Positions 41,725 through 46,645 of a stretch of DNA of 64,000 nucleotides are shown piece by piece. Below the pieces are notes generated by a model. It was given only the letters and a program-made list of their open reading frames with translations, searched no databases and was not told the origin of the DNA. A program made the position numbers and the translations under genes. Every line of letters begins with the position of its first letter. The stretch's first letter is position 1. Source of the stretch: an uncultured Candidatus Saccharibacteria bacterium (lineage in GTDB: Bacteria > Patescibacteriota > Minisyncoccia > Phycocordibacterales > JACNGX01); assembly GCA_964621395.1 (NCBI GenBank), contig CAZULS010000001.1, forward strand, positions 245,106 through 309,105, read 5' to 3'.

Positions 41725-42330
41725 ATGGAAGGCCCCTTCATTGATCTTGAATACGTGTTTTACCAAATATATTCATTTGTATTTGGTATTCCTTCTGCAA
41801 CATCGACCGAAAACGCAACGTCCACGGGTCTATTATCGACTATCACCTCTTTTGACCCAAACCCGACATTTATCATTGCAAAAAATGTGATATCGCTTGT
41901 CATATTACTGCTGATTGCGGGCATTGTGTATGTGCTTGTGCGTCTCTGGGAAGTACAAAAAGAAGAAGAGGCGCAATTTGTCTTCGCTGAGCCTGAACAC
42001 GGACATGGAGAAATTAAGAACGAGCAATGGGAGCTCATTGAAGAGCACATCTCGTCAGAGAATACTTCGGATTGGCGTGTGGCAATCCTTGAGGCAGATA
42101 ATATGCTTGAAGACATGCTGGTGCGCATGGGCTACGACGGTGAGAGCATTGCCGATCGCTTGCGTGCGGTAGAACCAAGCGACTTTACTCATATCCAAAG
42201 TGCATGGGAGGCGCATAGAGTGCGTAATCAGATTGCGCATGAAGGAGTGAATTTTGTCGTTACTCAACGTGAAGCCCGCAGAGTGATTGAGCTGTATCGA
42301 AAAGTGTTTGAGGAATTCCACTATATTTAG
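41725..42330 (+). CDS. Hypothetical membrane-anchored protein with HEPN-like R-x4-H motif
   Basis: 201 aa; one TM (ISLVILLLIAGIVYVLV); C-terminal AWEAHRVRNQIAHEG. Confidence 0.35.
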   Translation: MEGPFIDLEYVFYQIYSFVFGIPSATSTENATSTGLLSTITSFDPNPTFIIAKNVISLVILLLIAGIVYVLVRLWEVQKEEEAQFVFAEPEHGHGEIKNEQWELIEEHISSENTSDWRVAILEADNMLEDMLVRMGYDGESIADRLRAVEPSDFTHIQSAWEAHRVRNQIAHEGVNFVVTQREARRVIELYRKVFEEFHYI

Positions 42331-42657
42331 GAACTAGAATAAAGAATGAAGAATTATGCCTAGCCCGTGCCGAGCCACGGTCGGCCTAGGGAATAAAGAA
42401 TAAAAGGTGCGGCTCACGCCGCACCTTTTATGTATCCCACTTGTCATTTCGTACCCAAACTCTGTCATTCCGGGCTTGACCCGGAATCTCAAAAACAATC
42501 CCACACCTCTCAACACTTCAGAAAATAAAAAAAGCCCGCGGCTTTTGCCAAGGCTCCGCGGGGCACTCGTGCGGCTTGCGTAATAAAAGAGGATATGGTA
42601 CTATCGTGTATACGAAGCCGAGAACGGCTTTTTCATTTGAAATATATGGTATTCCAT

Positions 42658-42728
42658 AGGGGGGTAGAGAAGTAGTATCTCGGGAGGCTCATAACCTCCA
42701 GACCTAGGTGCAATTCCTAGCCCCCCTA
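42658..42728 (+). ncRNA. tRNA-like cloverleaf, anticodon CAT, non-canonical D/T loops (possible pseudo-tRNA or att remnant)
   Basis: Hand fold: 7-bp acceptor (AGGGGGG/CCCCCCT), U8, 3-bp D stem, 5-bp anticodon stem ggagg/cctcc with loop cUCAUAa (U33, A37), 4-nt variable loop, 5-bp T stem ctagg/cctag with loop tGcaatt (G at position 55), discriminator A then CC. Confidence 0.3.
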
Positions 42729-43040
42729 CCTGTACACCAAAAAGACACGACAAGCGTGTCTTTTTGGTGTATACAGGAGGGAGGGATGAGAATGCATTTA
42801 TGCATTCTCATTAGGAATTGCAAGCCGCAGCCATATCGGAGCAACTTGTTGCGACGATGGCGAGGCCGGGCAGGAGCCACACGCACTTTTCCGAGCTTTT
42901 GCGAAGGAAAAGGGCGATGTGAGCTGCGCCAATTCCTAGCCCCCCTACACCCGAATACAAAAACGGCACAAATGTGCCGTTTTTGTGTTTTAGGGTACAA
43001 ATGTAAATTGCGCCAATTGCAAGCCGAAAAAAGTTGAGAA
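42700..43040. repeat. Diverged tandem duplication of a (tRNA-3'-end)-(long hairpin)-(aattgcaagccg) module
   Basis: aattcctagcccccctac at 42712 and 42925. Hairpins caccaaaaagacacg-acaag-cgtgtctttttggtg (42735-42769) and acaaaaacggcac-aaat-gtgccgtttttgt (42950-42979). aattgcaagccg at 42815 and 43015. Confidence 0.5.
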
Positions 43041-43061
43041 TACACCAAAAACCTGGTATGC

Positions 43062-43259
43062 TAGAACCCATCTCATATTAAATGGTGTATTCTCGCGCTC
43101 TCTCGCTGAGCGAGTCGATGTCGCGGAGACCGTGCCGCACTTTCGTGCGGTGCGGTTGAGCGACGAGACGCAGCCAGCGAGAGAGTGCGAGAATTGCCAA
43201 GCATGATACACAGAGTGTAGAAGTATTGTTTCTGGCGGTTTAATGTGAGATGGGTTCTG
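43062..43259. repeat. MITE-like element, family 2
   Basis: ctagaacccatctcatattaaatgg...gagaattgccaagc...taatgtgagatgggttctg; lies 8 nt before tRNA-Met. Confidence 0.7.
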
Positions 43260-43267
43260 TACACCTT

Positions 43268-43344
43268 GCCGGGGTAGCTCAGTCGGTTAGAGCGAAGGAC
43301 TCATAAGCCTTAGGTCGTGGGTTCGATCCCCACCCCCGGCACCA
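43268..43344 (+). tRNA. tRNA-Met (anticodon CAT; elongator, initiator or Ile2 not distinguishable)
   Basis: Cloverleaf by hand: acceptor gccgggg/ccccggc, D arm gctc-agtcggtta-gagc, anticodon loop cucauaa, T arm gtggg-ttcgatc-cccac, discriminator A, encoded CCA. A terminator hairpin follows at 43345..43392. Confidence 0.8.
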
Positions 43345-43431
43345 CTCCGCAAAAAAAACTCCTTGAGGAGTTTTTTTACGGAGTGGTGCCGGACAAGCCC
43401 GGCTTACATTACCCTATTCAAACACAAGGTA

Positions 43432-44365: not shown

Positions 44366-44524
44366 ATGTCACAGGATAGACTCATTAAATTGGCTTGTGC
44401 GGACTGTAAGCGAATCAATTATTGGTCCCGCAAGAACAAAAAGAAAGTTGAGCGCAAGATTGAGCTCGACAAGTATTGTAAGTGGTGCAAGAAGCACACA
44501 ACACATAAAGAGACGAAGAAGTAA
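44366..44524 (+). CDS. rpmG: 50S ribosomal protein L33
   Basis: 52-aa ORF below the track cut-off: [53 protein letters not shown]33 Cys4 zinc ribbon (C..C...C..C) with the KNK and HKE context. Confidence 0.7.
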
Positions 44525-44525
44525 T

Positions 44526-44724
44526 CAGAACTCATCTCACATTACATGGCTTGTTCTCGCGCCAAGGATTCGAGCGAGTCGCAGTCTCGGAGACCGAAGC
44601 GTACTATTGTACGATGAGGTTGAGAGGCAAGACGCAGCCGAATACTTGGCGCGAGAACTGCCAAGCGATTATGCGTAGCGTGAGAATATCACTACCTTAG
44701 CGGTGTAATGTGAGATGAGTTCTG
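44526..44724. repeat. MITE-like element, family 2
   Basis: Starts 2 nt after the rpmG stop and ends 16 nt before tRNA-Asp: cagaactcatctcacattacatggcttgttctcgcgcc...gcgcgagaactgccaagcg...taatgtgagatgagttctgg. Confidence 0.7.
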
Positions 44725-44739: not shown

Positions 44740-44814
44740 GCGGCCGTGGTGTAGCTCGGTTAACACGTCGCTCTGTCACAGCGAAGATCGCCGGTTCAAA
44801 TCCGGTCGGCCGCG
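44740..44814 (+). tRNA. tRNA-Asp (GTC)
   Basis: Acceptor gcggccg/cggccgc, D stem gtgt/acac, anticodon stem tcgct/agcga with loop cuGUCac, T arm gccgg-ttcaaat-ccggt, discriminator G; no encoded CCA. Confidence 0.85.
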
Positions 44815-44934
44815 CAAAAACAAAAAACACTAGCTCTCGCTAGTGTTTTTTGTTTTTGGCAAAGCGGCCGAACGGAACTTCACTGTGATTTTTTTCTTGA
44901 AAACCGTTACCAAATATAGTACTCTATACAGCAC

Positions 44935-45007
44935 GCCAAGATAGCTCAGTTGGTAGAGCACACCCATGGTAAGGGTGAGGTCCCGGGTTCAAACCCCGGT
45001 CTTGGCT
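44935..45007 (+). tRNA. tRNA-Thr (GGT)
   Basis: Acceptor gccaaga/tcttggc, D arm gctc-agttggta-gagc, anticodon stem caccc/gggtg with loop auGGUaa, T arm ccggg-ttcaaac-cccgg. Confidence 0.85.
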
Positions 45008-45447
45008 CACGAGCATAGCGAGTGAACCAAGACAGAAAGCCCACTGCTGGGCTTTCGTCGGGGTTTGAACGGCGGAGTATGTCTGAGTGGCTTGCCACGA
45101 AGACAGCGAGCCGCGTCCAGCGATACTTATCAGAATACGAGCCCTTGGGCGAAGTATTATGATTAGTAATCGTGGGACAACCCCGGTTGCGGATTGCGAA
45201 TACCTGGAGCAATACGCTTAATAACTCCGGGACAACCCCGGCCCTGTTGTGGCTCACGAGCTCCTCGGACCGAGCACCATCCAAGCACCACTTTCACCAA
45301 CTACTCTATAATTTGTTAAAGAGGAGTTTAAGAATTTCCTTTCCAAAAAGTTGATGATAGGGTGTAATAGTGAAAGTGGTGCTCGGTGGTGCTTGGGAAG
45401 CGAGTGTATTCTTAATTCTTAACTCCTAATTCTTCATTCTAATCATC

Positions 45448-45520: not shown

Positions 45521-45748
45521 CAGAAAATCAAAAGACAAAAAACAATAGTCAAATACCAAATAAAAAGGAAATATCAAACACAAAAACACAAAAGCGGCGC
45601 GTAGCGTCGCTTTTTGATACACGGCATTATTTGTCATTCCCAGCTTGACTGGGAATCTTCGCTGTTTTGTTTTTAGAGGTTATTCGAGAAGATCCCGCAT
45701 CAAGTGCGGGATGACAGGATATGTGTGTTCCGTGCTATACTGTCCACT

Positions 45749-46645
45749 ATGACAGACACGCGGACAAAAGAGGAGAAGCAAATGCGACTCAAGGAGATTG
45801 AGGCGGCAATGAATAGCGCCGATTTTTGGAGCGATAAAGACAAAGCACAATCGCTTATTGCCGAAATGCAGGAGCTGAAAGACGATATTGAAGGTGTCTC
45901 AAAATATGATCGCATGGGCGCTATCATTTCATTTGTTGCCGGTGCGGGGGGAGACGACGCGGAAGATTTTGTGGCGATGCTGTATCGGATGTATGCGAAG
46001 TATGCGGAGAATCGTGGGTGGAGCATGGAGGTGCTCCATAAAAATGAAAATGATCATGGCGGTATTCGCAATCTCACCGCAGAGATTACAACGAAGAATG
46101 CATACGGCACACTCAAGCATGAATCAGGGATCCATCGACTCGTGCGCCTCTCTCCTTTTAATGCCAAGAGTCAGCGACACACGTCTTTTGCACTTGTGGA
46201 AGTGGTGCCGAAAATCGACAAGCGCGGCGGTATCGACATTAGAGACGAAGATGTGAAGGTGGAATTTGCACGATCATCAGGTCCGGGCGGGCAGAATGTG
46301 AATAAGCGGGAGACGGCAGTGCGTATTGTGCATCTGCCGACCAATATCGCCGTCCACGCCGAATCAGAGCGCACACAGGAGCGCAATCGCGATAAGGCAA
46401 TGGAGATTCTCGAAGGACGCTTGATTCGCAAGCAGGAAGACGACCGTGCTCGCGAGCTTGCCGGATTGTCTGTGTCAAAGACAGTGCAGATTGAATGGGG
46501 GAATCAGATTCGCTCGTATGTCCTTCACCCATATAAAATGGTGAAAGACCACCGAACGGATGTGGAAGTGCGCGATGCCGAAAAGGTCTTGGAGGATGGT
46601 GTTATTGAGCCATTTTTGGACGCTGAAAAAGAGCTTTCACAGTAA
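45749..46645 (+). CDS. prfB: Peptide chain release factor 2 (N-terminally short, no frameshift site evident)
   Basis: ATG 8 nt after TATACT (45735-45740). SPF tripeptide motif (RLSPFNAKSQRHTSFA) and GGQ (SGPGGQNVNK). The alignment begins at about residue 25-30 of E. coli RF2. The track's GTG start at 45704 lies inside a hairpin repeat. Confidence 0.8.
   Translation: MTDTRTKEEKQMRLKEIEAAMNSADFWSDKDKAQSLIAEMQELKDDIEGVSKYDRMGAIISFVAGAGGDDAEDFVAMLYRMYAKYAENRGWSMEVLHKNENDHGGIRNLTAEITTKNAYGTLKHESGIHRLVRLSPFNAKSQRHTSFALVEVVPKIDKRGGIDIRDEDVKVEFARSSGPGGQNVNKRETAVRIVHLPTNIAVHAESERTQERNRDKAMEILEGRLIRKQEDDRARELAGLSVSKTVQIEWGNQIRSYVLHPYKMVKDHRTDVEVRDAEKVLEDGVIEPFLDAEKELSQ

Follow-up and report, generated by a model that had tools for sequence, protein, structure and literature searches.

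In the 64,000-nucleotide (nt) stretch of contig CAZULS010000001.1 analysed here (positions 245,106 to 309,105, from an uncultured Candidatus Saccharibacteria bacterium; hereafter the window), a tRNA gene with the anticodon CAT is followed by a second copy of its own 3' end, which raises the question of what this tRNA is and what the DNA between the two copies encodes. The initial annotation had offered either an att-like duplication at a noncanonical tRNA or pseudo-tRNA, or a duplicated structured RNA module. The reading that we favour, with a probability of roughly 0.55, is that the gene is an initiator tRNA carrying, between nt 55 and 56, a 219-bp cassette without open reading frames (ORFs), which is non-autonomous, recombines via the tRNA 3' segment and encodes a mimic of one half of a tRNA.

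The window was compared with loci and contigs of relatives and from metagenomes, which are given L-numbers (L084, L085, L181 etc.). A contig scan with GatA yielded only relatives at 50-60%, the closest GatA proteins among species representatives belonging to Patescibacteria (Paceibacteria, Nomurabacteria, Parcubacteria; 53-60% identity), and closer relatives were therefore taken from a protein database. In L085-L088 and L084, GatA is 87-89% identical to that of the window, and in L181, a Yonathbacteria-like metagenome-assembled genome, it is 66% identical. Two sequencing runs hold contigs identical to the window, and when the flanking ORFs were looked up as exact proteins, the only hits were identical contigs of the same samples, with no variants.

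The cloverleaf noticed in the initial annotation is called as tRNA(CAT) by both programs employed: ARAGORN reports a tRNA with anticodon cat at 42658-42730, and with Rfam RF00005 (gathering score 29), 42658-42728 scores 61.8 bits. Its parts read AGGGGGG UA GAGA AGUAGUA UCUC G GGAGG CUCAUAA CCUCC AGAC CUAGG UGCAAUU CCUAG CCCCCCU A. The anticodon loop CUCAUAA contains the CAU of an initiator, and the D-stem GAGA/UCUC contains A11:U24, as it does in the relatives; elongator tRNAs carry Y11:R24. Two of the three G-C pairs of an initiator are present at the bottom of the anticodon stem (A29-U41, G30-C40, G31-C39), and this pattern is that of most Patescibacteria initiators at this locus. Such an A29-U41-type variant is known from other reduced genomes, and the initiators of Mycoplasma and Rhizobium have AU/GC/GC anticodon stems. 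Instead of the C1xA72 mismatch, a weak Watson-Crick pair A1-U72 is found, common to the window, L085, L084, L181, and L183, whereas orthologous genes have A1xA72 (L003, L004, L010, L011, L021, L094, L180), C1xA72 (L012, L014, L025, L033), or U1-A72 (L182). The gene order GatA, small ORF, short tRNA(CAT), tRNA-Met, tRNA-Asp, tRNA-Thr is conserved, and in many Patescibacteria loci the same slot is occupied by a tRNA with the initiator hallmarks A11:U24, G30-C40/G31-C39, and C1xA72 or A1xA72. Since the window tRNA lies in the initiator slot and shares A11:U24 and the anticodon stem, it is regarded as the initiator of its lineage and not as a pseudo-tRNA; the latter option finds no support at a position where relatives hold canonical C1xA72 initiators. 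By these comparisons, the cloverleaf is a real initiator tRNA gene, and presumably a functional one, of this Patescibacteria (Candidate Phyla Radiation) genome. The canonical tRNA-Met (43268) lies 538 nt away, in agreement with the distance reported before.

The elbow of this initiator differs from the canonical one. With the T-loop UGCAAUU (G55) and the D-loop AGUAGUA, positions 18/55 are A/G, so that of the contacts G18-psi55 and G19-C56 the first is lost, and G19, C56, U54, and A58 can be retained despite A18/G55. The D-loop had been described as lacking G18G19; G18 is indeed replaced by A, but G19 is most likely retained (A14 G15 U16 A18 G19 U20 A21). All initiators with a UGCRA T-loop (G55) have a ..YAGU.. 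D-loop, that is A18 with G19 retained (window, L085, L084, L181, L183, L182, L094, L180, L004, L025, L027), and all with UUCRA (U55) have GG, that is G18 (L003, L010, L011, L012, L014, L021, L033). A18-G55 and G18-U55 thus covary without exception among the initiators compared, and as G55 is invariably paired with A18, the coordinated change at 18 and 55 that had been proposed is borne out. In the literature searched, no description of A18/G55 initiators was found. The tRNA resembles known non-canonical initiators in its A29-U41 anticodon-stem variant and differs from them in the Watson-Crick A-U at 1:72 of this lineage. It resembles tRNA-Pyl, which lacks G18G19 and T-psi-C, in that the universal G18/U55 contact is lost and the tRNA is still functional. 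In contrast to such elbow variants, G19-C56 and U54-A58 are retained here, the sole exchange is that of the 18/55 contact to A18/G55, and this exchange recurs across several Patescibacteria initiators. An essential initiator tRNA in which one of the most conserved tertiary contacts is naturally swapped (G18-psi55 to A18-G55) offers a test case for elbow recognition.

Two features flanking the initiator gene were seen in other genomes. In front of it, -10 boxes are found as TATAAT (L180 4371-4400, minus strand) and TAGTAT (L094 680-704); as they lie 6-9 nt ahead of tRNA position 1, transcription may begin at the mature 5' end or immediately beside it. Directly 3' of the initiator, other Patescibacteria have a hairpin-rich conserved segment (CACTTCG...CGAAGTG, GCCC...GGGC) followed by an ORF of about 90 aa resembling GIY-YIG nucleases (L011 3411-3747, L021 8339-8737, L014 8447-8800, L025 10557-11030), and this 3' flank appears to be an insertion hot spot.

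Evidence for an insertion comes from the repeat and from an empty site. The exact 19-mer CAATTCCTAGCCCCCCTAC, corresponding to tRNA nt 56-74, occurs twice (0.01 matches expected). A recurrence of the tRNA 3' end was thus correctly noted before, but the second copy starts at 42930 and not at 42925, and the copies are spaced 219 nt start to start with 200 nt, not 213, between them. Also, AATTGCAAGCCG occurs exactly at 42816 and 43015. In L181, the same tRNA runs directly into ACCCAAACTCAAAAACGACAC...GTGTCGTTTTTGAGTTTTAGGG, whose homolog in the window lies just past copy 2. As the L181 site is without the unit, the window can be described as the L181 arrangement plus 219 bp plus a 19-bp duplication, and the insertion part of the att-like alternative, together with the empty site that it called for, is confirmed: the repeat brackets an insert that is missing at the orthologous site. 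The insert opens with a replacement of nt 56-74 and hairpin A, and the original 3' end with hairpin C is displaced downstream, so that direct repeats of the tRNA 3' end flank the insert and the tRNA gene is restored, as in integrative elements.

The two hairpins had been taken for perfectly paired twins that differ by compensatory changes. They are distinct, hairpin A coming from the insert and hairpin C being original to the tRNA, and only the former (42733-42771) has a perfect stem of 17 bp, the latter (42954-42989) having 17 bp with one mismatch. Each is conserved across species through compensatory changes of its own, and in L084 the stem of hairpin A is wholly different yet paired. With regard to intrinsic termination, the U5 tract is present, but it pairs with an upstream A5 tract, and a consensus scan called neither hairpin.

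Both the window (43001-43026) and L183 contain only the final 14 nt of the core described below followed by a decayed repeat, L085 having CAATTCCTAGCCCCC and L183 GATGTGAGTCCCGT-CAATTCCTAACCCCTAC at the position of this remnant. The remnants in the window and L183 represent an older copy that was pushed distally. Tandem arrays are present in L094, L021, and L340, with nearly identical units in the first two, and the distribution among close relatives is patchy, as L181 is empty and L004, L182, L025, and L027 have the G55 tRNA without the element. No integrase or recombinase of its own was found in the insert. Its 219 bp hold no conserved ORF, and the genes around it have housekeeping functions or are ORFs with no Pfam match. 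A search for a linked recombinase around the elements of the window, L084, L180, L181, and L340 likewise gave none. L340 does contain a reverse transcriptase, but inside a prophage and beside tail genes, and it probably belongs to a diversity-generating retroelement.

The inserted DNA together with copy 2 can be folded into an RNA of about 170 nt. The segment 42593-43063 is common to L085 (85% identity) and L084 (74%), and in the alignment the stems are fully rewritten yet paired, with no change in copy 2 or in the junction sequences. The consensus fold consists of P1 (GGAAUUG/CAAUUCC, 10 bp in most copies), a 3-bp Pk with a G.A-rich internal loop, hp1, a short G-rich joiner, P2 with a bulged A, and hp2 with a GA[G..C]GAA motif, and it was recovered by manual pairing tables, single-sequence minimum-free-energy folds, and RNAalifold, the last reporting double changes in 15 of 34 pairs. 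In a 13-member alignment, which was fitted to the model and so flatters the figures, 87.9% of the cells pair as compared to 33-43% in slid controls, double changes occur in 27 of 34 pairs, and none of 500 shuffles matches the observed values. From the excess of G.U cells (26) over A.C cells (11), the RNA would be read in the sense of the tRNA. The fold z is -7.5 for the RNA at 42778-42948 and -4.85 for a tRNA-Thr-linked copy. Covariation of this strength argues that the insert encodes a conserved structured RNA, and the structured-module alternative of the initial annotation is upheld in this respect. Rfam 15 (including Intron_gpI, tmRNA, ribozymes, and riboswitches) matched, at gathering scores, only the tRNAs of the window and, at E <= 10, nothing on the element there, the element had no match in L094, L180, L170, or L340 at E <= 5 or 1, and no description of it was found in the literature searched. 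An initial model that had site B covarying with the 3' strand of the T-stem was abandoned; L180 fits it only in part (7 of 10 pairs), and the tRNA-like closing stem is absent in L094.

Related copies are found behind other tRNA genes. A pattern scan of metagenomes added three copies, two of them very divergent (L094, L180), 88 of the 91 loci being chance matches; in these two, the second repeat matches the initiator of the same genome despite a different T-stem and acceptor stem. A first covariance model (R1), built from copies linked to the initiator (fMet) only, found copies behind tRNA-Thr(GGT) in the window (45058-45195; 47.9 bits, E = 2e-9), L084, and L085, and two copies behind tRNA-Asp in L021. 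The same model also found three tandem copies in L305/L340, adjoining a tRNA-Ser-like 3' fragment at the border of a prophage. The bacterium that carries these does not look like a member of the Candidate Phyla Radiation. With a second model (R2), a member on which it had not been trained was detected behind tRNA-Thr in L183, and the Thr copy of the window scored 85.5 bits. In all family members, the repeat starts at C56 and matches the genome's own tRNA, and the 5' side of P1 reads as the reverse complement of nt 54-65 of the neighbouring tRNA. Accordingly, site B tracks the T-loop of that tRNA (GUUUGAA for UUCAAAC, GAUCGAA for UUCGAUC), and in the Thr, Asp, and Ser copies the two change together. 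Similarly, nine of ten members have a segment X that copies the 5' acceptor strand and is paired to the tail, its equivalents in the paralogs matching the acceptor stems of tRNA-Thr, tRNA-Asp, and the Ser-like tRNA. The 3-bp Pk switches among GCC/GGC, GGC/GCC, and GAC/GUC. Taken together, these sequences form one family that lies behind at least four tRNA species (fMet, Thr, Asp, Ser-like) with its arms matched to each. A viral scan with GGAATTGCAAGCCG gave chance matches only, and BLAST of the element unit against phages and plasmids gave no match.

Near these copies, two arrangements were noted. The tandem array and the tRNA-Ser-like 3' fragment adjoin a prophage with lysozyme, tail-repeat protein, and reverse transcriptase (L340 3400-12794; IMGVR_UViG_3300033463_005745), and since the prophage abuts the array, phage and cassettes seem to share one tRNA 3' site. 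In the window, the 3' ends of tRNA-Met and tRNA-Asp sit in long hairpins (43336-43392, 44806-44875), and after the terminator-like stem a copy of the tRNA's own 5' acceptor strand follows (UGGUGCCGG, GCGGCCG), a layout like that of segment X of the initiator.

According to the favoured reading, the cassette is inserted after nt 55 of the tRNA gene and ahead of nt 56. Repeat copy 1 would have arrived with it, and since a copy of nt 56-74 and a hairpin form the beginning of the cassette, the gene remains complete. The remainder of the cassette and the displaced original 3' segment would encode the RNA of about 170 nt, in which the copied 5' acceptor strand would form a stem with the acceptor 3' strand, nt 56-65 would be paired to the complement of nt 54-65 in an extended T-stem (P1), and the conserved three-way junction would replace the T-loop. 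By acceptor pairing, P1, and a junction in place of the T-loop, such an RNA would mimic the acceptor/T-arm half of the neighbouring tRNA. It would be made by read-through from the tRNA promoter and, owing to this mimicry, presumably trimmed by tRNA end-processing enzymes. Units would be gained, amplified, and lost through recombination at the shared tRNA 3' segment, by a route that may be Campbell-type, in trans by a tRNA-gene-targeting integrase, or homologous recombination (after DNA uptake). A unit-unit or circle junction would then read ...GAGCTGCGC|CAATTCCTAGCCCCCCTAC|CTGTACACC... and an empty-site junction ...CCTAGGTG|CAATTCCTAGCCCCCCTAC|ACCCGAATAC...

Several points weigh against this reading. 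The units neither contain nor are consistently flanked by a recombinase, a reverse transcriptase, or any ORF, excised or circular forms were not seen, and no promoter was found for the RNA; hairpin A may terminate read-through transcription. The copies in the window, L085, and L084 look vertically inherited, the empty site of L181 could reflect a precise loss via the repeat and not the ancestral state, and unequal crossing-over alone can yield tandem arrays. L094 lacks the acceptor-mimic X, and the pair counts come from a fitted alignment, although slid controls and manual tables concur with them. Finally, the re-matching of all three arms to a new tRNA is unexplained by the cassette model. 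A more far-reaching version, which we offer tentatively and think rather unlikely, is that these are new, protein-less, T-loop-specific elements whose sole product, the tRNA-mimic RNA, sets the destination of the unit, either as the guide of a recombinase whose gene lies elsewhere or by attracting enzymes that process or recognise tRNA; if this were true, they would be retargetable, tRNA-mimicking mobile RNA genes.

A real possibility, though on balance not the probable one, is that the unit is a host gene for a tRNA-derived, tRNA-like non-coding RNA that arose by partial duplication of the tRNA gene and is vertically inherited and not mobile. The identity of the 3' ends would be kept by gene conversion, copy number would change by unequal crossing-over between the repeats, and the RNA would serve the cell, for example in precursor processing or by titrating tRNA enzymes. 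This is consistent with a spacer that is under purifying selection and co-linear in the window, L085, and L084, with a Thr-linked copy common to the window, L084, L085, and L183, in which T-loop, tail, and site B co-evolve, and with the lack of mobility genes; hairpin B, too, begins with GAGA and ends with UCUC, as does the D-stem of the tRNA. However, one core behind four tRNA species with three arms exchanged is hard to obtain from independent duplications, newer copies adjoin the tRNA and older, decayed ones lie further off, and neither the patchy occurrence in close relatives nor the nearly identical tandem units in L094 and L021 agree well with it.

It is doubtful, and clearly less probable, that insertion is directed by the RNA itself, with site B, which spans 55/56, and the tail guiding a recombinase encoded elsewhere, like IS110 bridge RNAs or the exon- and intron-binding sequences (EBS/IBS) of group II introns. 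The arms are exchangeable around a constant core, as such a mechanism would have it, and site B also complements nt 54-55, with CA opposite U54 G55 (fMet) and AA opposite U54 U55 (Thr, Asp); as the base ahead of copy 2 is always C, this pairing of nt 54-55 cannot be with copy 2. Nevertheless, the complementarity to nt 56-65 is already accounted for by formation of P1 with the tail, only one case is informative for the match to nt 54-55, the units are linked to neither a reverse transcriptase nor a recombinase of the DEDD, tyrosine, or serine type, and large programmable internal loops as in bridge RNAs are lacking.

Largely refuted are an ordinary attL/attR scar of a deleted prophage or island with functionless hairpins and a small Cys-rich protein (ORF 42786-43037, 83 codons, AGGAGG Shine-Dalgarno): a repeat from T-loop to 3' end is the classical identity block of tRNA-gene integrases (cf. 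PMC9897764) and the L340 array abuts a prophage, but no integrase is present, the same unit boundaries and core recur in at least five independent contexts, covariation is extensive, and copy 2 is invariant while the adjacent stems are wholly rewritten, and the ORF has lost its ATG and, through an indel, its frame in L084, no gene being called at its position in L084 or L085, so that the region is considered non-coding. Partial tRNA copies and a spurious Cys-rich ORF of this kind are annotation traps.

The cassette can be compared to three known systems. With integrative elements at tRNA genes and their cis-mobilizable derivatives it shares insertion in the 3' part of the tRNA, a repeat from the T-loop to past the 3' end, restoration of the tRNA 3' end, tandem accretion with older copies distal, and an empty site in a relative. 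In contrast to these, the unit measures 120-230 bp and has no integrase or other ORF, its boundaries are identical in every lineage and it is thus, unlike att scars, no deletion remnant, and its content is a structured RNA whose helices include the att segment; any mobilisation of it is putative. With tRNA-like RNAs (tmRNA domain, mascRNA, viral tRNA-like structures, the 3' end of the Neurospora mitochondrial retroplasmid) it shares an acceptor/T-stem mimic that ends at the discriminator base and lacks an anticodon, and a place directly downstream of a tRNA with which it is probably co-transcribed, as in tRNA-linked processing. Here, however, the T-loop is replaced by a three-way junction of about 100 nt and the stems copy a specific neighbouring tRNA; as regards tmRNA, there is no tag ORF, ARAGORN calls no tmRNA, and no Rfam family matches. 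Bridge (seek) RNAs of IS110/IS1111 are likewise structured non-coding RNAs of about 150-200 nt encoded by inserted DNA, with exchangeable segments that match the target on both strands. Unlike in IS110, no DEDD/Tnp recombinase gene is adjacent, the flanking genes being unrelated, the repeat has 19-25 nt and not a 2-nt core, and the matching segments pair together in a helix and are not open loops.

Whichever reading applies, a covarying RNA family absent from Rfam is tied to tRNA-gene 3' ends in members of the Candidate Phyla Radiation and, outside it, in at least one further bacterium. If mobile, its members would rank as the smallest known cassettes for site-specific insertion at tRNA genes, possibly with a new mode of target choice; if host genes, they would be a new kind of tRNA-half mimic in reduced genomes. 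The features of the fMet and Thr copies in the window are listed in Table 1.

Table 1. Coordinates of the initiator tRNA, its cassette, and the tRNA-Thr-linked cassette in the window.
Feature	Coordinates	Strand	Description or basis
Initiator-type tRNA(CAT)	42658..42730	+	ARAGORN, Rfam, synteny, alignment with relatives' initiators
Direct repeat copy 1	42711..42729	+	tRNA nt 56-73 plus C74
Hairpin A	42733..42771	+	cassette-borne; 17-bp perfect stem, A5/U5 clamp; terminator-like
X, AGGG(A)GGG	42778..42785	+	copy of tRNA 5' acceptor strand with one bulged A; pairs with 42940-42946 (RNAfold)
Hairpin B (AUGAGAAUGCA/UGCAUUCUCAU)	42786..42811	+	variable arm between X and P1; compensatory changes in L084
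Site B, UUAGGAAUUGCA	42811..42822	+	P1 5' strand; reverse complement of tRNA nt 54-65; first pair U.G
Three-way-junction core	42823..42929	+	pairing tables, RNAalifold, covariance-model match (152 bits), pair counts
Core: J1			AAG
Core: Pk	42824-42826 with 42864-42866		GCC with GGC
Core: hp1	42830-42861		
Core: J			CGG
Core: P2a/P2b 5' strand	42870-42881		
Core: hp2	42883-42915		GA[GC..GC]GAA apical motif
Core: P2b 3' strand	42918-42921		
Core: bulged A	42922		
Core: P2a 3' strand	42923-42929		
Direct repeat copy 2	42930..42948	+	displaced original tRNA 3' segment; invariant in window, L085, L084
Copy 2: P1 3' strand	42930-42939		
Copy 2: acceptor 3' strand	42940-42946		pairs with X
Copy 2: A73	42947		
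Hairpin C and flank (ACCC..GGGU extension)	42949..42998	+	original downstream hairpin of the tRNA; L181 homolog directly 3' of tRNA
Older cassette remnant	43001..43026	+	core end ATGTAAATTGCGC, then decayed third repeat CAATTGCAAGCCG
Promoter-like site for downstream tRNA-Met	43034..43062	+	TTGAGA-17-TATGCT with TG; conserved in L084, L085; conserved spacer ends here
Thr cassette	45027..45262	+	behind tRNA-Thr(GGT) 44935-45008; R1, R2, fold z = -4.85
Thr cassette: X	45027-45033		CCAAGAC
Thr cassette: hairpin	45035-45056		
Thr cassette: site B	45058-45069		UCGGGGUUUGAA
Thr cassette: core	to ~45176		
Thr cassette: repeats	~45180 and ~45233		copies of CAACCCCGG
Thr cassette: end			decayed tRNA-Thr 3' end and trailer (GGCTCACGAGC)

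The window is a segment of a bacterial chromosome with nearly all genes on the + strand, and the cassette locus is surrounded by genes for NAD-dependent DNA ligase (LigA), GatC/GatA, RF2, FtsE/FtsX, and CTP synthase (PyrG). A phage origin of the window is ruled out by these housekeeping genes, and in a comparison with INPHARED its sole match was the canonical tRNA-Met.

Some further structures and ORFs were observed nearby. A weak PrrB/RsmZ-like match (42303-42432; 28.4 bits against a gathering score of 44) contains several AGGA/GGGAA motifs and has a strong terminator hairpin at its end (42400-42431); it may represent a CsrA-sponge-like small RNA or be due to chance. Between the promoter of tRNA-Met and tRNA-Met itself, a long imperfect hairpin of about 196 nt (43063-43258) with 20-nt terminal inverted repeats AGAACCCATCTCATATTAAA / TTTAATGTGAGATGGGTTCT is missing in L084 and L085, and relatives share a conserved paralog of it, located at 44518-44722 between tRNA-Asp and the L33 gene; Rfam has no match for either, and they could be a miniature inverted-repeat transposable element (MITE)-like element or another structured RNA. 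A 191-aa ORF without Pfam or PHROG match lies between tRNA-Met and the L33 gene (43620-44195), and as its region is absent from L085, it is regarded as a lineage-specific insertion of about 0.9 kb. The RF2 ORF (45704-46645) starts within the PCRF domain and covers only profile positions 96-194 of it, and it probably has the usual short upstream frame and programmed +1 frameshift.

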